NCBI GenBank assembly: GCA_017616555.1
Contig: JAFZXZ010000016.1
Location: 24,642 to 88,641, forward strand
Source of the DNA: a bacterium
GTDB taxonomy: Bacteria; Auribacterota; UBA3054
Length of the DNA stretch: 64,000 bases
Direction: 5' to 3'
Made by a program: the position numbers and the translations under genes. Within the stretch, counting starts at the first letter, position 1. Every line of letters starts with the position of its first letter. This document shows, piece after piece, positions 47,833-58,842 of the stretch. The notes below the pieces were generated by a model. It made no database searches. It was not told where the DNA came from and was given only the letters and a program-made list of their open reading frames with translations.

Positions 47833-49614
47833 TTATTTTTCCTTGCGCTGCATGACAGCGTTCAGGTCGATGCCGGACGTGAAGGGTTCCTGCGGCGCGT
47901 TGCTGGGAACCGGTTCCTCAGCAGGAGCGCTTTCGGTCGTTTCAGGAGCGGCGGCTTCCGGAGCGGTCTCGCGTTCGTATTCTTTCAGGCTGACGGCGAT
48001 CTTGCGGTCAGTCGGGTCGATCCTGACGATCTTGCCGGTGACTTCCTGGCCGACCTGGACGACTTCTTTCACGTTCTGGACCTGGTTCTGGCTCAGCTCG
48101 GAAATGTGGATGAGGCCTTCGATGTCGTTGTCAAGCTGAATGAAGGCGCCGAAAGTCGTAAGGTTCGTGATCTTGCCGGTGACGGTGTCGCCTTCGCGGT
48201 AATGATCGTAGATGTGATCCCAGGGGTCTTCGGTAAGCTGCTTCAGACCAAGGGCGATCTTCCTGTCTTCCGTATTGATGTTCAGAACGACGGCTTCGAC
48301 CACTTCGCCCTTCTTCAGAACTTCGGAAGGATGATTGATCTTGCGGGTCCAGGACATATCGGAGACATGGATGAGGCCGTCGATGCCGTCTTCCAGTTCC
48401 ACAAAGGCGCCGTAAACGGTGAGGTTGCGCACCACGCCTTTGATCTTGCCGCCGATGGGATAACGCTCGTTGATGGTTTCCCAAGGATTGCTGTGCGTCT
48501 GACGGAGGCCGAGGGAGATCTTCTGATCGTCGGTGTCGATGGAGAGAACGGCCGCCTTGACGACGTCGCCCACCTGGACGAATTCAGAAGGATGATTGAC
48601 CTTGCGGGTCCAACTGAACTCGGAGATGTGGATGAGGCCTTCCAGGCCTTCTTCCAATTCCACGAAAGCGCCGTAAGGCAGCAGATTGACGACTTTGCCT
48701 TCCACGACGGTGCCGGCGGGATACTTCTTATCGACATCCAGCCAGGGGTTCGGGGTCATCTGCTTGATGCCGAGGGAAACGCGTTCCTTATCGTAATCGA
48801 TGCCGATGATCATAACGTCGATCTCTTTGCCGACTTCCAGGATCTCGGAGGGATGATTGATGCGGCCCCAGCGCATATCGGTGAGGTGCAAGAGACCGTC
48901 GATGCCGTCCAGATCGATGAAGGCGCCGAAATCGGTGATGTTCTTGACAACGCCCTTCTTGATGTCGCCGACCTTGATCTGATCAAGGAAGGAGCGGCGC
49001 TTCAAAGAGCGCTCTTCGTCAAGCAGCTCGCGGCGGGAGACCACCACGTTCTTGCGTTCGTGATTGACTTTGATGACTTTGACTTCGATCTCCTGACCGA
49101 TAAAGTCGTCGATATTCTTGGTGTTCTGGAGAGAAAGCTGGCTGGCTGGCAGGAAGGCTTCGATGCCGATGTCGACCATAAGGCCGCCTTTGACTTTCCT
49201 TCTGATGATACCTTTGACGGGCTTGCCGTCGTCGCAGGCCGCCAGAGTGGCGTCCCAGGAACGCTGACGGTCGGCTTCAGCCTTGGAGAGGCGGATGTTG
49301 CCGTGCTCGTCTTCCTTGCTGACTAAAAAGACGTCGACAGTGTCGCCAACGGCCAGATTCGGGGTATCGGCGAACTCTTCGCGGGGCAGAACGCCCTCGG
49401 ATTTATAACCGACATTGACGATAACGTGAGTCGGAGTGATGTTCACGACTCTGCCCTGGATGATGGTGTTTTCCGTGACGGAACGGAAAGTGCCGTCATA
49501 CATGGCGCGCATATCCTCGTCAGAGAATTTTTCGTAGTTGGAGGATTCCTTGATACCGTACTGCTCGAGATCGATCTTCAGGTCATCCATTTCTTCAAAA
49601 GAATTTTGATTCAT
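47833..49614 (-). CDS. rpsA: 30S ribosomal protein S1
   Basis: six S1 repeats (NVGYKSEG, FLPASQ, VKNITDFGAFIDL, GLIHISE, GLIHVSD). Confidence 0.97.
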   Translation of the reverse strand: MNQNSFEEMDDLKIDLEQYGIKESSNYEKFSDEDMRAMYDGTFRSVTENTIIQGRVVNITPTHVIVNVGYKSEGVLPREEFADTPNLAVGDTVDVFLVSKEDEHGNIRLSKAEADRQRSWDATLAACDDGKPVKGIIRRKVKGGLMVDIGIEAFLPASQLSLQNTKNIDDFIGQEIEVKVIKVNHERKNVVVSRRELLDEERSLKRRSFLDQIKVGDIKKGVVKNITDFGAFIDLDGIDGLLHLTDMRWGRINHPSEILEVGKEIDVMIIGIDYDKERVSLGIKQMTPNPWLDVDKKYPAGTVVEGKVVNLLPYGAFVELEEGLEGLIHISEFSWTRKVNHPSEFVQVGDVVKAAVLSIDTDDQKISLGLRQTHSNPWETINERYPIGGKIKGVVRNLTVYGAFVELEDGIDGLIHVSDMSWTRKINHPSEVLKKGEVVEAVVLNINTEDRKIALGLKQLTEDPWDHIYDHYREGDTVTGKITNLTTFGAFIQLDNDIEGLIHISELSQNQVQNVKEVVQVGQEVTGKIVRIDPTDRKIAVSLKEYERETAPEAAAPETTESAPAEEPVPSNAPQEPFTSGIDLNAVMQRKEK

Positions 49615-49736
49615 AGTTTTAGGTTGGGTTGATTGTTAAGTTAGTTCATGGACATAGTTCCACTGAATAGGTAGATGATTTTACCACAACACTTCCTAAA
49701 ACTCAAGAGCAAGGAAATTTGTCTGCCGAAGCCGGC

Positions 49737-51047
49737 TTATCTCTCAGCTCCCGCCCTTTTTCTCAGAGAGCCCAGGATAATGCCCAAAAAGGAAGCGGCC
49801 GCCAAAAGGAAAGGATAATAGATGCAGCCGACGAGGCCCAGTCCGCTGAATTCGGCCCCTGCGCTCCTGGCGATGCCGGTCGCCATAAGTATCTGCGCGC
49901 CGTAAGGTATTATCCCCTGCACAAAGCAGCCGGCGATATCGACGATGCCCGCCAATCTTACGGGATCGGCCTTGAATTTTCTGCCCAGCTGCCTGACGAC
50001 CGGGCCGGCTATGACGATGGCGACCGTATTGTTCGCCGTAAAGAGATTCACAAGCCCCGTGAGGAAAAAAGCGCCCAATTCGCAGCTTCTTTGTCCTTTG
50101 ACTTTCCTGGCGATAGCGTTTGTCAGCCACTCTATTCCGCCGGCCTCGGAAACCAGATTGAAAAGCCCGCCGGACAAAAGCGCGATAGTCAGCGTCTCGC
50201 TCATGCCAAGCGTCCCCTTTCCGGCCGTTTCCAAAGCTCCCCAGAAATCAAGCGGCCCGAAAACAACGCCCAGCAAAGCGGAAATGAACGTCCCCAAAAA
50301 GAGCACGACCACAACGTTTACGCCGACAAGCGCAAAAAGCAAGACCAAAACGTAAGGCAGTATCAGGATGAAGTCTTTTATTGAGACCGCAACGTTCGAA
50401 ACAGACTGCGCGCCGGACTGCGAAGACCCGGCGATGAGATAGATGAACAAAGTCACGAGCGCCGCCGGCACCGCCAGGGCAACGTTGGCGATGAATTTGT
50501 CCCTCATCCCGACGCCCTGCGTCCTGGTCGCCGCAATCGTCGTATCCGAGATCATGGAAAGGTTGTCGCCGAACATCGCGCTGGAAACGATCGAGCCGGC
50601 CAGCAAAGCCGGCGACAAGCCCAAAGGCTCGGAAAAAGCCATGGCGATCGGCGCCACCGCCGCGATCGTTCCGCAGCTCGTCCCCACCGCCAGAGAGATC
50701 AGAGATGAGACCAAAAACAGCCCGGCCACCATGAAGTTGTCGGGAATGATCCAGCGCGCTATAACGACAGCGGAATCGACCGCTCCGCTCGCCTTGGCCA
50801 CCGCCGCGAAAGCCCCAGCCAGAATAAAAATGAGGCACATCAGCATGATGTCCGGCTCTCCCATGCCCTTGGCCAGAGACTCTATCTTTTCCGAAAATTT
50901 CTTATCTCTTTGCAAAAAAAGCGCCGAGGCGATAGCCACCAGAAAAGCCACCGTCATGGGAACTCTGTAAAAATCCCTCGCTATGATGCCAAGCGTCACA
51001 TAAAAGACCGCGAAGACCGCGAAAGGAATAAGAGCGAAAGCGTTCAT
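49737..51047 (-). CDS. Na+/H+ antiporter NhaC-family transporter
   Basis: GTSCGTI, FGDNLSMISDTT, IPYGAQIL; ~12 TM helices. Confidence 0.85.
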   Translation of the reverse strand: MNAFALIPFAVFAVFYVTLGIIARDFYRVPMTVAFLVAIASALFLQRDKKFSEKIESLAKGMGEPDIMLMCLIFILAGAFAAVAKASGAVDSAVVIARWIIPDNFMVAGLFLVSSLISLAVGTSCGTIAAVAPIAMAFSEPLGLSPALLAGSIVSSAMFGDNLSMISDTTIAATRTQGVGMRDKFIANVALAVPAALVTLFIYLIAGSSQSGAQSVSNVAVSIKDFILILPYVLVLLFALVGVNVVVVLFLGTFISALLGVVFGPLDFWGALETAGKGTLGMSETLTIALLSGGLFNLVSEAGGIEWLTNAIARKVKGQRSCELGAFFLTGLVNLFTANNTVAIVIAGPVVRQLGRKFKADPVRLAGIVDIAGCFVQGIIPYGAQILMATGIARSAGAEFSGLGLVGCIYYPFLLAAASFLGIILGSLRKRAGAER

Positions 51048-53707
51048 CAGACTAAGTGTCTCCTAATGCCAATTAAAAATAAAACCAGCAAACCCAAAAG
51101 CCAGCAAGGCTCCGGAACATCGTTCTCGACCAATTCGAAAACATGCCAATCCAATCTCTCAAAAGCTTGAGCATAAGGTTTGAGCTTGTATTCTTCCGTC
51201 GAGACTCTCCTTTGCCCAATGCCGTCGAAAGTCAGCAAAAGTCCCAGCTTCGCCCCTTCAACACAGGGGAAGCAGTTGGTCGCGTCTTCATCAGGCCAGC
51301 AGGTATAGCCTCTGATACTTCCAAGATCGCAGGGAATCTTTATCTCCGCAATAAAACCGCCGTCGTCTGTCAAAACTTTCTTGACCTTTGCCCCAGTCGG
51401 CGACAAACCGCTCTTCCACTGCCCCATGCTCCTGGCGTCGTCCGAAGTGCTTATCAGCCTGTTGGCATACTGGTTGAAGATCTTGAAGCGGAAGGTGTCT
51501 CCGCCGAACCATGGTCCGCTCAAACCGGAACCGTCCAATTCTATGGTGATGCCGCAAAGCTTATCCGTCTTGAAAGCCAGATACAATCCGTCCTCGCGCC
51601 ATCCGGCGTAAGCCGTCACGTTGAAGTTCGTCACGTCTTTATTGCAGAGCGTTCCCTGCCCCCAGTAATTCCACTCTCCTTTTTCAATGACACCGTCGAA
51701 GTCAGGCTCCTCAAAAAGACTGGGGATCTTCTTATTGTAGCCTACGATCGGATACGGATCTTCGCCGTCCGCAAGGCCGTCGCCGTCCGTATCGGTATTG
51801 TTCGCGTCGCTGGGGAAATACAGCCCGGCGGTATATTCTTTAAGATCGCTCAGGCCATCGCCGTCGGTATCGCTTTCGGTAGGATCGGAATTCATTCTGA
51901 CTTCGTCGCCTGGCAATAAGAAATCGTCATCGCCTAAACCGTCATAATCGCTGTCGCGGTAAACATAACGCCCGTCCCACGGGCCCATCATGCCGAAATA
52001 ATTCGTGAATGGCCGCATGGCGTTGCCGCACCAGGAAAGGTCTTCCCCACCCGTGGCCCAGCCATAAATGGAATCATCCGGATGACTGCTGGCATATTCG
52101 TGATAACCGCTGTAAGAATACATCTGATCAACCGAGTGCATCATCTCATGCACCGTCACAAACGTCGTGCCGTCGCCGCCCCAGTTGCCCACCTGGGCGC
52201 ACATAACAGCACCCATGCCGGTGTAATAAGCGGATCCGCCGCCCCAGTTCCCGCCGCAGTGGCTCCAGCCGTTGCCGTAAGTGAAGACGAACATATCGTA
52301 CTCTTCATTCCAGATGCCCAAGGTCTTTCTGAGATCCCTGGCCATGATCCTGCCGCCCAGCTCCAATTCCCCGTATTCGTTGGTGTAGTTCCTGAAGAAA
52401 TCCGGTGCCGGCGGAATGATATTCCTGTAAACAGGATCGTATAAAAGCAAAAGCTGCGCATTGGAATTGCGGTAGTAGAATTCCTTGACCTGCGGATAAT
52501 AAATGTTGGTGTAATTGGCTGGCGGCGTATTGTTGCCCGCTCCCGTGTAGGCCGTCATCAGAATGTCCAGGCAGGGCACTTCGCCGTAAACGATAGGCAG
52601 ACTGTCCTGCGCGAAGAAACCCTTTACCGCAAAGACAGAATTCGTATCTTGGGAAGTCTTGGCGAACTCAAAAGTCAAAGAGCCAAGCCCGCCCTCCGAA
52701 ACGTAAACATCCGTAAAATTTTTATCCTCGCCGTTGCAGCCGAATTTCACCAATCTTCCGTTCTTCAAAAAACCGAAGGAAAAAACATTCTCTTCGACCA
52801 GTGCGGAAGTCGTCGCCAGAAGCTCATCATCTTTCATCAAGCTTCCCTCTTCCCCAATCTGAAGCTCTAGCAAAGTTTCCTCGCCAGAAAGGACTCGCAG
52901 ATTCCCCTGCGCTCCACCCGCCGATACGCTTCCGAATGTCAACTCCAGACCGCTGGAAAGAGAACTGCAATCGACATCAAAGCCTACCGCTTCACCGCCC
53001 ACAACGCAATCTGAATCGTCCCTTAAAACTACGCCATGTTTTTCAGCTTCTTCCCTGAACTTCACATTGTCAAGATAAAATCTCTCGAGACCGCTCTCAA
53101 CTTTAAAATCAAGATCTCCAGATTCCAAATCCGAAGCCAGCGCGAATCCCGCCAGCTCCACATCCTTATACGGCGTCTTGATTTTCAGCAGCCGATCATG
53201 AGTTAAAAGCAATTCCAGATGCTGCCACTTCCTGTGAAAGAGCGCCTGTACGCCCGGCAGTTCCCGCCAAGCGGGAGCATCGCCAAAATACGAACCGTAA
53301 ACTTCCAAAACAATCGCATTGGCGCCGACCTGCCTCAAACGCAGCAAAGGCGTGTCCCCTAAACTCACCACCGCGCTCTTCTCCGATAGGTCCTCAGACA
53401 AAGTCGCGTAAAAATCAAAAACGATCCTTTGTTCCTTATCAGCATCAAAAGCCACCGTGCGGGAAAGCGACGATTCCCCTGTCATCTCCACGGAGCGCTT
53501 GCCATATTTGAACCAGACCGCCACGTTTATGCTGTTCGTAGTATCGACGACCTGCGTCTCGCTGACCAGAACGCTATCCGTGGCGCTCCAGCCGTCCTGT
53601 CCGTTTAAAGCCCCGGGAGAAATATTCTCAAAATTGAAATACGCCGCCTCGCCGAAGGCGCCCAGCGCACTCAAAACCAGCAACAGAAAAAATAAGATCC
53701 TCTTCAT
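51047..53707 (-). CDS. multidomain exported PEP-CTERM protein with HExxH motif and Ca-binding DxDxDG repeats
   Basis: signal peptide; VHEMMH; DSDYDG, DTDGDGLSD, DTDGDGLADGED; PDFDGVIEKGEW (CBM9-like start); VPEP-TM-RRH. Confidence 0.8.
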   Translation of the reverse strand: MKRILFFLLLVLSALGAFGEAAYFNFENISPGALNGQDGWSATDSVLVSETQVVDTTNSINVAVWFKYGKRSVEMTGESSLSRTVAFDADKEQRIVFDFYATLSEDLSEKSAVVSLGDTPLLRLRQVGANAIVLEVYGSYFGDAPAWRELPGVQALFHRKWQHLELLLTHDRLLKIKTPYKDVELAGFALASDLESGDLDFKVESGLERFYLDNVKFREEAEKHGVVLRDDSDCVVGGEAVGFDVDCSSLSSGLELTFGSVSAGGAQGNLRVLSGEETLLELQIGEEGSLMKDDELLATTSALVEENVFSFGFLKNGRLVKFGCNGEDKNFTDVYVSEGGLGSLTFEFAKTSQDTNSVFAVKGFFAQDSLPIVYGEVPCLDILMTAYTGAGNNTPPANYTNIYYPQVKEFYYRNSNAQLLLLYDPVYRNIIPPAPDFFRNYTNEYGELELGGRIMARDLRKTLGIWNEEYDMFVFTYGNGWSHCGGNWGGGSAYYTGMGAVMCAQVGNWGGDGTTFVTVHEMMHSVDQMYSYSGYHEYASSHPDDSIYGWATGGEDLSWCGNAMRPFTNYFGMMGPWDGRYVYRDSDYDGLGDDDFLLPGDEVRMNSDPTESDTDGDGLSDLKEYTAGLYFPSDANNTDTDGDGLADGEDPYPIVGYNKKIPSLFEEPDFDGVIEKGEWNYWGQGTLCNKDVTNFNVTAYAGWREDGLYLAFKTDKLCGITIELDGSGLSGPWFGGDTFRFKIFNQYANRLISTSDDARSMGQWKSGLSPTGAKVKKVLTDDGGFIAEIKIPCDLGSIRGYTCWPDEDATNCFPCVEGAKLGLLLTFDGIGQRRVSTEEYKLKPYAQAFERLDWHVFELVENDVPEPCWLLGLLVLFLIGIRRHLV

Positions 53708-53756: not shown

Positions 53757-53787
53757 ACAAAAAAAGAGCGCCATTTAGGGCGCTCTT
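53757..53787 (-). terminator. rho-independent terminator after the FGE-domain gene
   Basis: AAGAGCGCC-CTAAAT-GGCGCTCTT followed by T run. Confidence 0.8.
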
Positions 53788-53810: not shown

Positions 53811-55517
53811 TCACTGTACCAGGAAGACTCGGAAGCCGTAGCCGCTGTAGTCGCCGAAGTTGGGCTTGCTGTATTCGCGGGTAGCCGAGCGGCAGTCGGC
53901 AGCGGGGCTGTAGCAGCCTCCGCCTCTAAGCGTGCGATAAGTTCCTGTTCTCGGGCCTTTGGGATCAGTAACTTCTTCTGACCCTAAATTAGCCTTATAC
54001 CAGTCGAGACACCATTCCCAGACGTTGCCGTGCATGTCGTAAAGGCCATAGTAATTGGGTTTGTATGTGCCCACAAAGTTATGCGCCTGATTTATCGTCC
54101 CTTCTTCGGGATTGCCGCCGCCGTCGTACCAATAGCGAGCCAATTCGTCCAAATCAAGATCCTTAGTCGTGCTGGTAAGATTATAGCCGCTGTTCAAGGC
54201 CGAATCTGTCATACCCCTGCAGGCGAACTCCCACTGCGCTTCGGTGGGAAGGTCAAAGATCAAACCGGTTTTTGTGCGGAGAATTCCGAAGAAAGAATCT
54301 TCGTCAACTCTATTGTTGGCGGGCCAGTTGGCGCCTTTTTCAGCGCCGCGAAGCATATTGTAAGATACTCTCTCCACCGGGCGAGTGACACCTTTGAACA
54401 GAGAAGGATTAGTGCCTGTCACCAGTTCGTACTGTTTCTGGGTGACTTCGAAAATACCGGCGTAGATAACTGGGGTCAACACTACTTGATGCCTGACTTC
54501 GTCGTCTTTTTTGCCCAGTTCTCCATCGCGGCTGCCAATCATAGAGCCCATAGGCTCGATCTTCTTTAAAACTAGTTTAGTTTTCTTGTGCTCCAGCGTC
54601 CAACCGCCTTCCGGCTCATTGTCGAGACTTGTGACCGGGAAACTAGCCGCTTCTGGTCCTCCTGAAAGATCGATCACAATATATTCGCCGCTGGGAGGGA
54701 GCGCCTGCTCGCTAGCTTCAACTTTGATAGCCAAATCATCGGTGACCGTATCATAGAAACTTTCATCCGGCGTCCATAAAGTTTCATGCCATCCTGTTCC
54801 GACAACAGGCCCCTCCGCTCCTTCTTTGCTTAAGGTTCCTCTTTCCGACAAATCAAAAAGATGCTCGCCAGAAAATCCGTCAAAATCAAAGCAGCCATAA
54901 ATCCTGATATTGAATGTAGGGTTAGCGTTATCGGAGGTAAGATAATAGTGAATAACCACGCTTCGATCAAAAGGCCAGTTCTGCCGACAATTGACCTGTT
55001 CGACCGCTCCTTCGGCCTCGGCACTGAAAAAACCTAACGTAGCGATCGTCAAAGCAGCGATCAGGCCTTTAATACGCTTGCGCAAGAAAATCGCGCCAAT
55101 TACAGCAATTGCGAACAGGCCCACGGGCTCCGGCAATATCGTAATCATACGACTATATTCCTTTGTTTCAAACTCCGTCTCTATCTTTTCTTTGAGCACA
55201 TATGTGTCATCGGTGGGAAAATCCTTGTATTTTTCATCAGTATAATCCCAGCAAAAAGCGCCTCCCCAATATCCAAAGGAAGAAGCGTAAAGTTGGGCCC
55301 ATATTTCCGGATTTTCCTGGTCTTCCACAGTTATTACAATAGACTTCGGTTGACCTTCCGCCAGGGAGCTGCTGTAGGTAATGGGAGCGTCCGGCCTCAA
55401 CAGGATCGGTTCATCCGTGATCTGACTCCCGTCAAAAGAAATTCCATAACACCAACCGTCGGCAAAAGCCGAAACGCAGAAAAGCGCCGCGATGCTGAGT
55501 AAAATTGCCTTTTTCAT
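53811..55517 (-). CDS. exported FGE-sulfatase (SUMF1/CLec-fold) domain protein with internal PEP-CTERM and second signal peptide
   Basis: FEVTQKQY, RPVERVSY, LPTEAQWEFACRG, GLYDMHGNVWEWCLD, LRGG, GFRV; LPEP-TM-RKR at residue ~129; start ATG 55517 after GGGAGA. Confidence 0.88.
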   Translation of the reverse strand: MKKAILLSIAALFCVSAFADGWCYGISFDGSQITDEPILLRPDAPITYSSSLAEGQPKSIVITVEDQENPEIWAQLYASSFGYWGGAFCWDYTDEKYKDFPTDDTYVLKEKIETEFETKEYSRMITILPEPVGLFAIAVIGAIFLRKRIKGLIAALTIATLGFFSAEAEGAVEQVNCRQNWPFDRSVVIHYYLTSDNANPTFNIRIYGCFDFDGFSGEHLFDLSERGTLSKEGAEGPVVGTGWHETLWTPDESFYDTVTDDLAIKVEASEQALPPSGEYIVIDLSGGPEAASFPVTSLDNEPEGGWTLEHKKTKLVLKKIEPMGSMIGSRDGELGKKDDEVRHQVVLTPVIYAGIFEVTQKQYELVTGTNPSLFKGVTRPVERVSYNMLRGAEKGANWPANNRVDEDSFFGILRTKTGLIFDLPTEAQWEFACRGMTDSALNSGYNLTSTTKDLDLDELARYWYDGGGNPEEGTINQAHNFVGTYKPNYYGLYDMHGNVWEWCLDWYKANLGSEEVTDPKGPRTGTYRTLRGGGCYSPAADCRSATREYSKPNFGDYSGYGFRVFLVQ

Positions 55518-55576
55518 TTTATATCTCCCAAAGTGGTACATTTGCTTTATTTTATCAAATTTTACTCAGAGAAAGA

Positions 55577-55715: not shown

Positions 55716-56504
55716 CTAAAGCTCAGTTTCGCTTTGCGGAAGCTTGTGCCCGGAAATCAGCGCGGCCGCGAACTTCCACAAATACCAGGGATTGTACTTG
55801 AAATAGCGGACGAAGAGCCTTCTCGGCTCCATAAGTAAGCGGTAGAACCATTCCATGCCGATCTTCTGGAGGAAGGCGGGCGCCTGGGAGGTCTTGTCGG
55901 CGTAAAAAGCGAAGGCCGCGCCAACGGCCGCCATGATTGGAACGTTCAGTTTCGGAGCGATCTCGTCTATGAAGACCTCCTGCTTGGGGGCGCCAAGGCA
56001 AACCCAGACGATGTCGGCTTGGGAGTCGTTGATCTGGCTGATAAGTTCTGTTTGCTCTTCCTCAGTGAGAGGCCTGAAGGGCGGGATATATGTGCCGACC
56101 ACGTTAAGATTCGGGATCTCTTTTTTGGCTTTTTCTAAGAGAGCGTCAACGGTTTCCTGCGTGCTGCCGTAGAAGAAGTGTTTGATTTCTCCAGGGCGGT
56201 AGTTCAGGGCTTTTTCAAAGAAGGTCGGGCCGTAAACCCTATCCTCCATGGTGATCTTGCCAAGTTTTCTGATAGCCCAGACCAGGGGCATGCCGTCGGT
56301 GACAGAGAGCGCTTTTGGATGGTTGACAGCCTTTTTCAACTTCTCGTTCTCTAAGGTCATCATGACCACATGGACATTGCAGAAATTGTAGCGGTAGGGT
56401 TCGGCGGGCTTCTTTTCTATTATCTCGTCTGTGATCCTAAGAAGCTCGGCGTAGGTGGTGACGGTAAGCTCGGCGCCGAAAAGATTGGCTCTTTTTATTT
56501 TCAT
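55716..56504 (-). CDS. WecB/TagA/CpsF-family glycosyltransferase
   Basis: NVH, TDGMPLVW, RVYGP, FFYG, VCLGAPKQE, VGAAF, MEWFYRL..EPRRL. Confidence 0.93.
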   Translation of the reverse strand: MKIKRANLFGAELTVTTYAELLRITDEIIEKKPAEPYRYNFCNVHVVMMTLENEKLKKAVNHPKALSVTDGMPLVWAIRKLGKITMEDRVYGPTFFEKALNYRPGEIKHFFYGSTQETVDALLEKAKKEIPNLNVVGTYIPPFRPLTEEEQTELISQINDSQADIVWVCLGAPKQEVFIDEIAPKLNVPIMAAVGAAFAFYADKTSQAPAFLQKIGMEWFYRLLMEPRRLFVRYFKYNPWYLWKFAAALISGHKLPQSETEL

Positions 56505-57637
56505 ACTTTGAGCTTCTCCTCCATCAAAGCTACAGCCTGCCTGAAGCCCTCGGCCATCTTATCGTAGGTCCAGCCGGCGATCTTAGTTTTGGCGTTTTTG
56601 GAAAGCGTTTCCCTGAGTTCCTTATCTTCAATGAGTTTTTCGATGGCTTGGGCCAGTTTTATGGGATCTCTTTCCGGAACAATGAAGCCTGTCTTGCCGT
56701 CTTCCACCAGGCCGCCTGCGGCGGCGCCCACGGAATCCGAGGCGACGACCACGCAGCCCTGATTCATGCATTCGTTGACCACGAGGCCCCAGGGTTCCTT
56801 GAAGGTCGCGGTGGTCACAGAAGGAACGACAACGATATCGAACAGGCTGTAATAAAGGTAAAGTTCCTCGTTAGGAACATAATCGGCAAAATTGATCTTC
56901 AGATCGTTGGCTTTGGCGAAGTCCTCACACTTAGTTTTTTCCGGACCCTTGCCTATCATAAGCAATTGTGTGTTTTTGGGAAGCATGGTCAGCGCTTTCA
57001 AAAGATCATTTAGACCTTTGTCTTCCACGAAACGGCCCACGAAAAGAAGTTTGGGATCATTGTTGTTGATTGCGTACTTTTCCTTGATCGCCTTTATTTT
57101 TTCTTCTTCCGGTGCTTTCGCATAGAGTTCGTTGTCGGCGGTGTTCTGAGCGATGAAGATCTTGTCAGATCTCATGCCGCGGGAAACGAGGTAGGCTTTG
57201 ATGTGAGTGCCGTAAACGATAGCGAAATCGGCGTGGCGGTAGATGAAATCAGTAAGCGGCCTAGTAATAGTGTGGAAACTCGTTCTGGGATGGTACCAGA
57301 GGCCGGTCCAGATACCGAAGGGAATGCCCCTTGATCTGGCGATAATATAGCCGAGAAAAATGAAGGCGGCGCCGTTGAAGCCCTGTATGATTCCTTGCGT
57401 TTCTTTGGAGAAAAGCACTTTGATGTAGCGCCAGATTATGGTCAGCTTGTTGGCGCCGTCGTCGGCAAGATAGATGTTTTCCGCTTTTTTCTCGCCCTGA
57501 GCGTTGCTGGACTCCCAGTATTTTTCAGTGCCGGCGGAATAGAAGAGGATCTTTAGTTTCAGTTCGTCATTCAGGATCTTAAAGAGCTTGATCCTGTAGA
57601 AGGGGCAGAAGTTGGTGACGAGCAGGAAATTTTTCAT
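56501..57637 (-). CDS. GT4-family glycosyltransferase
   Basis: LLFVGRF...KG, VVPS...EPWGLVVNECM, GFIVP. Confidence 0.9.
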   Translation of the reverse strand: MKNFLLVTNFCPFYRIKLFKILNDELKLKILFYSAGTEKYWESSNAQGEKKAENIYLADDGANKLTIIWRYIKVLFSKETQGIIQGFNGAAFIFLGYIIARSRGIPFGIWTGLWYHPRTSFHTITRPLTDFIYRHADFAIVYGTHIKAYLVSRGMRSDKIFIAQNTADNELYAKAPEEEKIKAIKEKYAINNNDPKLLFVGRFVEDKGLNDLLKALTMLPKNTQLLMIGKGPEKTKCEDFAKANDLKINFADYVPNEELYLYYSLFDIVVVPSVTTATFKEPWGLVVNECMNQGCVVVASDSVGAAAGGLVEDGKTGFIVPERDPIKLAQAIEKLIEDKELRETLSKNAKTKIAGWTYDKMAEGFRQAVALMEEKLKV

Positions 57638-58842
57638 AGCTCGTCGTCCAGCATGCCGGGAAGCAGGAGAGGTTCCCCGCCGTTTCTTTTGGCGATGGCG
57701 TAATTGTAGATCTCGGTAAGGCGGGCCAGGTTCGCTTCCTTGGAAAATTCTTTTTCACCGTAAGCGGCGACTGTTTCGCGCATGGAGATTATCTCTTCTT
57801 TCTTGGCGTAAAGATCCTTGATGCGTTCTTTCAGTTCCTCGACGTTGCCGGGCGTGAAAAGCCAGCCTACGCCGGGAGGCAGAAGTGCGGGAAGACCGCC
57901 GATGCGGGAGGCCAGAACAGGCGTTCCCAATCTCAGGGAGTCGATGACGGTCACGGGACAGTTCTCATAGCATTCCGAAGGGAAGACTGTGACGAGCGCC
58001 CTGGCCATGTAGTAGTTGCAGACGTCGGGCGGCTGGTAGCCAAGGAAAGTCACGTTGGGATTGGGATGATCCTTCATATAGGCCGCCACTTCTTCGTCCA
58101 GGGGGCCGTTGCCGATCATCTTGGCGGGAACGTTTGATCCTTCCAAAGCTTTCAGCATCGTCATGATGCCTTTCTCCTGGGAGAAGCGTCCGACGAAGAG
58201 GAAATAGCCCTCGCACTTCGCTTCCGGATCGGGCGTAGCGTCGGAGCCGTTGGGCTTGGCGCAGACCGTGCCGAAACCGGCATGGCGGTATAGACGGGCG
58301 GAAAACTTGTTCAGGGTGATTATGCAGTCGATCTTCTTAAATGTGCCGAGAATGTAATGGAAGCGCAATATCGAGGCGTACCAAAGGGTGTACAGTTTGC
58401 TGTTCCTTAGGCAGCGGCGGGATATGCATCTCAGCATGCTCTGGTTGGGCTTCCTTTCGCAAGGCCTGCCGAAGCAGAAGAGCAAGCCGTTCGGACAGAA
58501 GAAACGGAAATTGTGAACGGTCTGCACGATCGGCACTTTTTTGACATGCAAAACAAGGTAGATGGTCGGACTGAGCAGCGGGAAAACGTTGTGGACCTGG
58601 GCGACGTCCGGTTTTTCCTTGTCGATTATGTCGCTCAGTTCGTGCGCCAGCTTCCAGTTGTAAAAACCCCCCAGGAAAGCGCAAAGCTTTTTCCAGGGTG
58701 AATAATCGGCGATGAGAGCGCTGTCTCTGAGGAAAGGAATGACCGTGTGCCCGGCCTGGCGGAGCATCTCAAGTTCCTTTTGGGCAACGGCGTCCTCGCC
58801 GCCTCTTTGGGAATAGAAATTATGACAGAATAAGATCTTCAA
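57634..58842 (-). CDS. GT4-family glycosyltransferase
   Basis: HNFY..RGGE, VHN, FVGRFSQEKG, PSECYENCP. Confidence 0.9.
   Translation of the reverse strand: MKILFCHNFYSQRGGEDAVAQKELEMLRQAGHTVIPFLRDSALIADYSPWKKLCAFLGGFYNWKLAHELSDIIDKEKPDVAQVHNVFPLLSPTIYLVLHVKKVPIVQTVHNFRFFCPNGLLFCFGRPCERKPNQSMLRCISRRCLRNSKLYTLWYASILRFHYILGTFKKIDCIITLNKFSARLYRHAGFGTVCAKPNGSDATPDPEAKCEGYFLFVGRFSQEKGIMTMLKALEGSNVPAKMIGNGPLDEEVAAYMKDHPNPNVTFLGYQPPDVCNYYMARALVTVFPSECYENCPVTVIDSLRLGTPVLASRIGGLPALLPPGVGWLFTPGNVEELKERIKDLYAKKEEIISMRETVAAYGEKEFSKEANLARLTEIYNYAIAKRNGGEPLLLPGMLDDEL

Follow-up and report, generated by a model that had tools for sequence, protein, structure and literature searches.

Organization of the fused gene

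The window, the whole 64,000-nucleotide stretch of DNA analyzed here, carries on its reverse strand one open reading frame of 568 codons without interruption (53811..55517), which encodes two modules, A and B, in a single chain. The frame was read directly from the sequence, and, as the earlier note had reported, neither a stop codon nor a frameshift breaks it. We retain the start codon at 55517 that was proposed there because homologs also begin at MKK, although the earliest in-frame ATG lies at 55541. In order, the 568-aa protein comprises a signal peptide, an Ig-like domain, an LPEP sequence, a 14-residue helix, the basic cluster RKRIK, a signal-peptide-like helix with AEA, a beta-sandwich and an FGE-fold domain. 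The first signal peptide, the PEP motif, both helices, RKRIK, AEA and the FGE-sulfatase region all lie where they had been placed before. The features of the locus are as follows.

53811..55517, reverse strand: whole fused gene, 568 codons plus a stop codon at 53811-53813; start ATG at 55517-55515
55524..55529, reverse strand: Shine-Dalgarno-like GGGAGA, 6 nt 5' of the start codon, read from the sequence
55461..55517, reverse strand: signal peptide 1, residues 1-19, MKKAILLSIAALFCVSAFA (AF2 helix 2-18; call inferred from the n/h/c pattern)
55137..55460, reverse strand: module A domain, residues 20-127, Ig-like beta-sandwich (AF2 strands 22-127, pLDDT about 85)
55068..55136, reverse strand: internal PEP-CTERM-type sorting signal, residues 128-150, consisting of L-PEP, the 14-residue helix VGLFAIAVIGAIFL and RKRIK (from homolog conservation and profile scores)
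55014..55067, reverse strand: internal signal-peptide-like segment, residues 151-168, with h-region GLIAALTIATLGFF and c-region SAEA (from column conservation and the position of stand-alone B signal peptides)
54693..55013, reverse strand: first domain of module B, residues 169 to about 275, beta-sandwich with a Q-x-W-P-F-x-R motif (from AF2 and split-gene comparison)
53814..54683, reverse strand: FGE-sulfatase / C-type-lectin-fold domain, residues 279-568 (PF03781 match at 335-564, E 1.3e-27)
53764..53787, reverse strand: hairpin resembling a strong intrinsic terminator (9 bp, 6 GC) with a T run after it, 24 nt past the stop codon

Domains of modules A and B

The module A domain matched no Pfam family, and structure comparison with the PDB returned generic Ig-like sandwiches only (best E 2.9e-3), with no specific fold among them. 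No Pfam or NCBIfam family matched the first domain of module B, whose Q-x-W-P-F-x-R motif reads WPWNGKVDI in the split forms described below. For the C-terminal domain, PDB fold matches include FGE structures, and the best match by fold and sequence together is the Treponema denticola variable protein TvpA (2y3c); the domain shares with both the FGE-type C-type-lectin fold.

Proteins of the family are annotated by NCBI only as 'formylglycine-generating enzyme family protein'. In an alignment with the T. curvata FGE, the first Cu-binding catalytic cysteine pairs with a serine and the second with C541, and the family consensus retains the CRSA cysteine only. A catalytic FGE enzyme is unlikely because the first catalytic cysteine is unmatched, which leaves the Cu-binding pair incomplete. 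The TvpA-like fold also made the gene a candidate DGR target, but, unlike the TvpA system, its genome (84% complete) contains neither a reverse transcriptase (no hit to PF00078) nor a template-like repeat matching the final 180 nt of the gene, and we rejected this candidate. The role of both products is likely to be surface or ligand binding rather than sulfatase maturation.

An internal PEP-CTERM-type signal adjoins a signal-peptide-like segment

The sequence spanning the hinge between the modules reads ...GLIAALTIATLGFFSAEAEGAVEQVNCR. The PEP motif occupies residues 129-131 (nt 55133-55125), the basic cluster RKRIK residues 146-150, and the second hinge helix, GLIAALTIATLGFFS, leads to AEA at residues 166-168 (nt 55022-55014). 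The hinge has a Pro-Glu-Pro followed by a hydrophobic helix close to the typical 13 residues and a basic cluster, in a protein with an N-terminal signal peptide and a genome with an exosortase; the usual placement of PEP-CTERM signals within about 10 residues of the C-terminus is missing, with 418 further residues after K150. The elements of a signal peptide are present at the same place, namely the basic RKRIK, an h-region in the 10-15 residue range and SAEA, whose −3 and −1 residues are small. We based this second call on the −3/−1 rule, the length of the h-region and positional homology: the segment begins at residue ~146 and not at the N-terminus of the precursor, and its equivalent in split homologs is N-terminal. 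Signal peptidase I is predicted to cut after A168. In the AF2 model, two confidently predicted beta-sandwiches flank helices at 132-144 and 150-161, and module B has its first strand from residue 172 onward, 4 residues past the predicted cut.

Pfam and NCBIfam scans of the whole 568-aa protein reported the FGE domain alone and no PEP-CTERM signal. In the profile check suggested in the earlier note, the PEP segment was matched when the hinge piece was isolated, but both scores were below cut-off (TIGR02595, 15.4 bits versus 16; PF07589, 13.8 versus 20.7). We also built a genome-specific PEP-CTERM HMM from the genome's 60 canonical C-terminal tails. Among 6,558 ORFs, it gave five significant internal matches, all of them fused paralogs (the 568-aa protein and four others), whose scores of 13.5-26.4 bits overlap the 16.6-37.7 bits of the canonical tails. 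Three of the paralogs score 22-26 bits; the protein at 53811..55517 is the lowest scorer at 13.5 bits, and it and one paralog at 15.2 bits fall under the canonical range. We judge that the hinge layout exceeds chance because the genome-specific HMM finds only these five internal matches and the PEP motif is near-invariant in 100 homologs.

Besides about 60 PEP-CTERM proteins with the ordinary C-terminal signal, the genome encodes a single exosortase, which any such sorting was expected to need; it is a 686-aa ORF that matches PF09721 (1e-33) and the TIGR04178 signature (56 bits versus a cut-off of 23) and has an EpsI-like C-terminal domain. Within the class, 16 of 18 genomes have an exosortase. 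Compared with the described PEP-CTERM/exosortase system (EpsH, Xrt; PMC1569441; TIGR02595, PF07589), the PEP, 14-residue helix and Arg/Lys cluster of the fused protein match the 60 canonical tails, and the N-terminal signal peptide and single exosortase are likewise shared. What differs is the location, with 418 residues separating the signal from the C-terminus and a signal peptide and two more domains coming directly after it. Haft 2006 found fewer than 10 further residues after 87% of PEP-CTERM signals and dismissed signals at non-terminal positions as probably non-functional (PMC1569441); in the fused family, by contrast, the internal PEP is near-invariant (99-100 of 100 sequences). A full-text literature search returned no description of an internal PEP-CTERM signal followed by a signal peptide, in agreement with the earlier view that the architecture was undescribed; a further candidate paper mentions C-terminal motifs only.

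The hinge is conserved in a family found in one genus

The same hinge recurs in the genome's four other paralogs, at 30-52% identity, and about 100 homolog clusters share the fused layout at 40-93% identity, with residues 1-340 fully covered. Across 100 aligned sequences, P129 and E130 are each present in 100 and P131 in 99, and the basic columns R146, K147, R148 and K150 are retained in 90, 84, 91 and 80, respectively. At the predicted cut site, where the −3 and −1 counts were taken from alignment columns of the same 100 sequences, A166 (−3) occurs in 80, A168 (−1) in 95 and D/E169 in 84. Of 97 sequences, 95 have a first hinge helix of 14 residues, the same length as in the genome's canonical PEP-CTERM tails. 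In a few family members the AxA is not clean, as in P0045/P0046, which read ...GTPPIKL. The earlier note had asked whether the succession of PEP, helix, basic cluster, helix and AxA is kept among homologs, and the PEP (99-100 of 100) and −1 alanine (95 of 100) counts answer that it is; they also dispose of the concern that the PEP motif itself might vary. In the fused family, strong purifying selection maintains both hinge signals.

The fused family was found in one genus only, in which all nine genomes searched carry it, and the most complete of these, a roughly 2 Mb genome, has roughly 13 fused copies. A scan for related loci with the single protein as query returned three rumen MAG loci only.

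Modules A and B also occur as adjacent separate genes

Both halves exist as adjacent separate genes as well; in relatives, a 154-aa PEP-CTERM gene A is directly followed by a 416-429-aa gene B that has its own signal peptide, one example occupying L009 725-1189 and 1173-2462. Three A-B pairs are found in the same genome as the fused gene (C28, C2 and C17). These pairs have homologous domains in the same order and the same two signals, and A (154) plus B (about 416) amounts to about 570 aa versus 568 in the fused form; they differ in the stop and start codons between the halves, both of which are gone from the fused form. In the C2 pair the two genes share a frame, and gene A ends in a single TGA (...YRKLN*GIKVNNRSLFLLLL). 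Profile matches to the split homologs meet at the hinge, with gene A homology ending at ~150-151 and gene B homology starting at ~150, which supports the idea, put forward in the earlier note, that the two signals share one basic cluster.

Because the same halves occur as adjacent separate genes, we read the gene at 53811..55517 as a conserved pair of neighboring genes, A and B, joined seamlessly and in frame, with the fusion point exactly between the basic tail of A (RKR) and the signal peptide of B. Position 149 would fit a relic of the initiator ATG/Met of B because it is V/A/T/I/M in 93 of 100 sequences. The module B tree calls for a minimum of one change between the fused and split states; fused proteins of the C17 type cluster with the split clade (SH-aLRT 99), and one or two fusion events both fit. 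The suspicion that homologs might always be two separate genes is contradicted by the about 100 fused clusters and by the roughly 13 copies in one genome.

Proposed processing of the fused product

We propose, with a probability of about 0.6, that the A-B fusion product is cut by signal peptidase I and exosortase into two exported proteins at a fixed 1:1 ratio, and we infer this cutting because the hinge signals are conserved. Signal peptide 1 would carry module A over the inner membrane through Sec, and the PEP-CTERM helix would act as a stop-transfer segment, with RKRIK remaining cytoplasmic. The next helix would restart export, now of module B, and the two helices would form a membrane hairpin. 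Signal peptidase I would then cleave after A-E-A168 and free module B, starting at E169, into the periplasm, and the single exosortase would recognize the PEP signal and sort module A like the genome's roughly 60 ordinary PEP-CTERM proteins. For this step, exosortase would have to accept a signal that is internal or, once signal peptidase has cut, still prolonged by about 20 residues. Each translation product would thereby yield two exported products, 1:1.

A polyprotein of comparable outcome is the Bradyrhizobium japonicum FbcH cytochrome b/c1 precursor, which is cut at an internal signal peptide to give two proteins 1:1. A single translation product, an internal Sec-type signal peptide and two mature proteins in a 1:1 ratio are common to FbcH and to our proposal, but the upstream part of FbcH is a polytopic membrane protein, whereas that of the fused protein would be exported and ends in the sorting signal of a second enzyme.

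If only one of the two signals worked, processing would be partial, and either module B would be released with A left on a hairpin remnant, if exosortase cannot use an internal signal, or A would be removed with B left on an uncleaved signal-anchor. No exosortase is known to act on a non-terminal signal, such signals were suspected to be non-functional (Haft 2006; PMC1569441), and the PEP segment of the protein at 53811..55517 scores under curated cut-offs. A dead signal, however, would be expected to drift at 40% overall identity, and the columns of the two signals rank with the best conserved in the hinge (PEP 99-100 of 100, A168 95 of 100); moreover, the hydrophobic core of the second helix, at 13-16 residues, is short for a stable anchor. 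We give partial processing a modest chance. The two consecutive helices modeled by AF2 would also suit an unprocessed bitopic hairpin protein, in which they serve as a two-pass anchor that shows both domains in the periplasm and resemble signals for historical reasons only, and co-localization alone can preserve fusions. Anchoring needs no invariant P-E-P, helix fixed at 14 residues or 95% alanine at −1, and in split form the two halves are an ordinary PEP-CTERM protein and an ordinary signal-peptide protein; this arrangement seems to us rather improbable.

Separate synthesis of module B from an in-frame internal start, perhaps with an internal promoter, is a much poorer fit. The gene at 53811..55517 does have a TTG at L145, which would give M-RKRIKGLIAALTIATLGFFSAEA, but no Shine-Dalgarno sequence precedes it, and the codon before RKR is TTG, TTA, CTT, CTC or ATG among the five paralogs, with no conserved start, for which reason we rejected an internal translation start at L145. 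A sigma-70-like match (10/12) lies at 55171-55144, but the region holds 3 promoter-like matches versus 2.0 ± 1.5 expected by chance, and we rejected an internal promoter as well. Module A would, in any case, still be without a stop codon, and we regard two initiations as very improbable. The chance that the fusion is an artefact of assembly or sequencing, or that a stop codon was lost accidentally only very recently, appears negligible: split A-B pairs do exist, one of them in frame with a single TGA ending gene A, but the about 100 fused clusters are independent, come from many assemblies and reach down to 40% identity, none with stops, and one genome alone has five diverged fused paralogs. 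The fused clusters, together with the nine genomes of the genus, refute this explanation.

The same junction in unrelated proteins

The same type of junction occurs in the unrelated proteins P0118, P0120, P0121 and P0125 and in P0117, a 2500-aa protein with 10 signals and 9 internal junctions; NCBI assemblies contain P0117, P0118 and P0121 as ORFs that are intact under table 11. These multi-unit PEP-CTERM chains share with the fused protein a PEP motif, a helix, an Arg cluster, an h-region and a small-x-small site. They differ in their domains, which are LamG, F5/F8 type C and NHL-like, in having up to nine junctions and in units that are often tandem duplicates. There is roughly an even chance that the junction of PEP-CTERM signal and signal peptide, as a hairpin with a shared basic loop, is a general, reusable linker for cutting and re-export, which would turn one Sec precursor into a chain of two to ten exported exosortase-sorted proteins. 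If so, it would define a bacterial secretory polyprotein whose products are separated by a pair of different membrane enzymes, and exosortases would act on non-terminal signals.

Implications

PEP-CTERM/exosortase sorting is widespread, its biochemistry is barely characterized and its substrates are defined by a strictly C-terminal signal. A conserved and amplified family with an internal signal challenges this C-terminal-only definition of the substrate. Current annotation overlooks these internal PEP signals, as whole-protein Pfam and NCBIfam scans report none. The fused proteins offer natural reporter substrates, in which a large folded downstream domain would make both cleavages trackable on gels. 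With about 13 fused copies in the roughly 2 Mb genome of a rumen bacterium, the fused family is likely to make up much of the surface repertoire of that cell. If the proposed processing is true, the family would represent a rare bacterial secretory polyprotein that fixes the 1:1 output of two surface or periplasmic partners.

One frame joins a PEP-CTERM signal to a second signal peptide

One uninterrupted open frame spans 53811..55541 (reverse strand); we take the ATG at 55517 as the true start because homologs begin at MKK, and GGGAGA lies 6 bases upstream of it. Every part that the earlier note had claimed for the product, P0001, is in place and in that order, and the frame stays open throughout.

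Features of the fused gene and P0001
MKKAILLSIAALFCVSAFA: N-terminal segment
Between MKKAILLSIAALFCVSAFA and L-PEP: domain of ~108 residues
55133-55125 (-): L-PEP, P129-E130-P131
Directly after PEP: first hydrophobic segment VGLFAIAVIGAIFL, then RKRIK
55022-55014 (-): AEA, A166-A168, closing the second hydrophobic segment, GLIAALTIATLGFFS-AEA
Downstream of AEA: ~400 residues, including an FGE-sulfatase domain at residues 335-564 (Pfam, E 1.3e-27)
53787-53764 (-): intrinsic-terminator-like hairpin beyond the stop codon

The PEP-CTERM assignment of the earlier note fell short in the public models: a scan of whole P0001 reported no PEP-CTERM domain, and the isolated hinge scored close to, and below, the cut-off of TIGR02595 (15.4 bits versus 16) and below that of PF07589 (13.8 versus 20.7). 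The assembly (32 contigs, 1.66 Mb, 84% complete), whose nearest public records are metagenome-assembled genomes from goat, yak and sheep rumen, contains ~60 ORFs whose C-terminus consists of [VIL]PEP followed by a hydrophobic helix and then a cluster of R/K. Among 6,558 ORFs, an HMM trained solely on 60 of these canonical C-terminal tails gave significant internal matches in P0001 and four paralogs only, with scores of 13.5-26.4 bits that overlap those of the canonical tails (16.6-37.7 bits); the window copy scored lowest of the five.

The genome also encodes the exosortase that such sorting presupposes, as a single 686-residue ORF (L001 343-2403, reverse strand, on contig C27) matching PF09721 at 1e-33 and the exosortase/archaeosortase signature at 56 bits (cut-off 23). 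It consists of an 8-TM exosortase domain fused to an EpsI-like C-terminal domain and is nearest to XrtW, XrtD and XrtA, yet falls far under their cut-offs, and it may therefore represent an undescribed exosortase subtype of the class. Across the class, 16 of the 18 genomes analyzed encode an exosortase, each in an ORF of 640-780 residues.

The fused architecture is conserved across a genus

Four further ORFs of the same genome (one on contig C13, two on C2 and one on C17) are 30-52% identical to P0001 and have an identical part order, with hinges comprising [LV]PEP, 14 hydrophobic residues, (L/M)RKRxK, ~14 hydrophobic residues and AxA. Searching 5.8 billion proteins with residues 1-340 matched ~100 clusters at 40-93% identity, nearly all with 94-100% query coverage; most have lengths of 550-580 residues, and some contain extra FGE domains. 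NCBI labels the homologs only 'formylglycine-generating enzyme family protein'. The hinge is conserved across these homologs, as had been asked of it, and the hydrophobic positions lying between its conserved columns vary freely. The first hinge helix has 14 residues in 95/97 sequences.

Conservation of hinge columns in 100 aligned sequences
129: P, 100/100
130: E, 100/100
131: P, 99/100
146: R, 90/100
147: K, 84/100
148: R, 91/100
150: K, 80/100
166 (-3): A, 80/100
168 (-1): A, 95/100
169 (+1): D or E, 84/100

Across the 18 class genomes analyzed, the family occurs in all nine of the window's genus (6-28 matches per genome, with ~13 full fused copies in the most complete) and was not found in nine from five other genera. 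The fusion is an old one that has been both conserved and amplified. With this many independent fused sequences, assembly error is ruled out. Internal initiation was likewise rejected: the codon before RKR is TTG in the window copy but TTA, CTT, CTC or ATG in the paralogs, so a start codon is not conserved, and promoter-like matches in the region show no excess over chance.

Split gene pairs locate the fusion point

The same genome carries three PEP-CTERM genes, each followed directly by a gene for a signal peptide, WPWNGKVDI domain and FGE domain.

Split pairs in the genome
C28: ATGA overlap, 4 nt
C17: 1-nt spacer
C2, reverse-strand coordinates 48240-50433 (forward ~67543-69735): in frame

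The C2 pair reads ...YRKLN-TGA-GIKVNNRSLFLLLLSLAAATSVLA at its junction, and this TGA, which ends gene A, is its sole stop codon (...YRKLN*GIKVNNRSLFLLLL); loss of that one codon would recreate the fused architecture. Similar in-frame pairs, each with one TAA, occur in two other genomes of the genus. In related species, gene A (154 residues) ends ...TILPEPGMMLVALALGLCALVKRF-stop and gene B (416-429 residues), directly after it, starts MKKALYLSILTATLATMALA; A and B of the split form total ~570 residues versus 568 in the fused protein. The earlier note had allowed that homologs might always be two separate genes; instead, fused and split forms both exist.

Profile matches to split genes end at query residues 148-154 for A and begin at ~150 for B, which puts the fusion point where the basic tail of A meets the signal peptide of B. 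In 93/100 sequences, position 149 carries V, A, T, I or M, and codons for V, T, I and M equal ATG or lie one base change away; we infer that this position descends from the start codon of B. A phylogeny of module B, the C-terminal half, requires a minimum of one change between fused and split states, and C17-type fused proteins cluster with the split clade (SH-aLRT 99). The tree is therefore compatible with two histories: a single fusion with a later fission, or two fusion events.

Module B is a putative binding domain

An AlphaFold2 model built from 43 sequences (mean pLDDT 82.6) comprises a beta-sandwich N domain (residues 22-127), two helices (132-144 and 150-161) of low confidence, as expected for membrane or signal segments, a second beta-sandwich (172-270) and an FGE-fold domain from residue 279; module B's first strand starts four residues past the predicted cut. 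Comparison of the N domain with the PDB returned generic Ig-like matches only. The C-terminal domain best matched the Treponema denticola variable protein TvpA (2y3c), a DGR target, followed by true FGEs, PvdO and PorK. In its alignment to Thermomonospora curvata FGE, the first catalytic Cys has no counterpart, and the CRSA Cys is the only Cys conserved family-wide. We therefore regard module B as a putative binding domain and consider a sulfatase-maturing role unlikely.

A DGR variable-region-like codon bias had been flagged in the 3'-terminal part of the FGE-fold domain (53832-53924, reverse strand). Searching the 84%-complete genome found neither a reverse transcriptase (RVT_1) nor a template-like repeat of the final 180 nt, whose sole other match lies at a paralog's 3' end (75% identity). 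Three more FGE-fold proteins, lacking module A and the hinge, are encoded on C17 (277996-280444, 149345-152417 and 152417-154946, forward strand); their conserved N-terminal domain is of another kind and is accompanied by repeat stalks, and in one of them the FGE domain occurs twice in tandem.

Neighboring genes
51047-53707 (-): next downstream; 886-residue protein, one of the ~60, that ends in a canonical PEP-CTERM (VPEPCWLLGLLVLFLIGIRRHLV) and has an HEMMH zinc-protease-like motif and Asp-rich, thrombospondin-type-3-like repeats (DTDGDGLSD..., DTDGDGLADGEDP); no Pfam match, and in NCBIfam a weak match to CglD only
55716-58842 (-): directly upstream; a WecG/TagA/CpsF-family and two GT1-family glycosyltransferases

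With these glycosyltransferases upstream, the fused gene and the protease-like gene lie on the margin of a polysaccharide-synthesis cluster, where PEP-CTERM proteins are often encoded.

Proposed processing of the fused protein

The fused protein contains both signals, PEP-CTERM and signal peptide; each is homologous to a working-type signal of the split genes, both are under purifying selection, and the genome encodes the cognate exosortase. We propose that Sec would export module A, the PEP-CTERM helix would act as a stop-transfer segment leaving RKRIK in the cytoplasm, and the second helix would restart export. Signal peptidase I would then cut after A168 and exosortase would process the PEP signal, yielding the two products at 1:1. 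Once signal peptidase has cut, the PEP signal would bear an ~18-20-residue tail that extends back to the periplasm. Long-tailed signals were 'very few' in the founding PEP-CTERM paper, which suggested a lack of function for them (PMC1569441). We give processing by both enzymes a probability of roughly 60%. Partial processing is an unlikely outcome by comparison, and a hairpin that stays unprocessed in the membrane is less likely still.

A hinge-only profile (51 positions) run against 1.84 billion representative proteins gave 27 matches, which include family members and unrelated proteins with repeated junctions.

Unrelated proteins with the same type of junction
P0117 (L006 96-7598, forward strand; NCBI GCA_020427265.1): 2,500-residue ORF, ten PEP-CTERM signals, nine internal
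P0118: three tandem units
P0120: four PEP-CTERM signals
P0121: two PEP-CTERM signals
P0125: six PEP-CTERM signals

P0117, the longest junction chain found here, consists of ten [domain - PEP-CTERM] units, with LamG and F5/F8-type-C among the domains; signal-peptide-like segments join nine of them, and an h-region and small-x-small site follow nearly all internal signals. NCBI assemblies contain P0117, P0118 and P0121 as intact ORFs under translation table 11. A full-text literature search found no description of a fused PEP-CTERM/signal-peptide architecture, in agreement with the earlier note; a further paper refers to PEP-CTERM motifs at the C-terminus alone. We class it as PEP-CTERM/exosortase sorting that is probably used from within the chain, the signal serving as a polyprotein junction.
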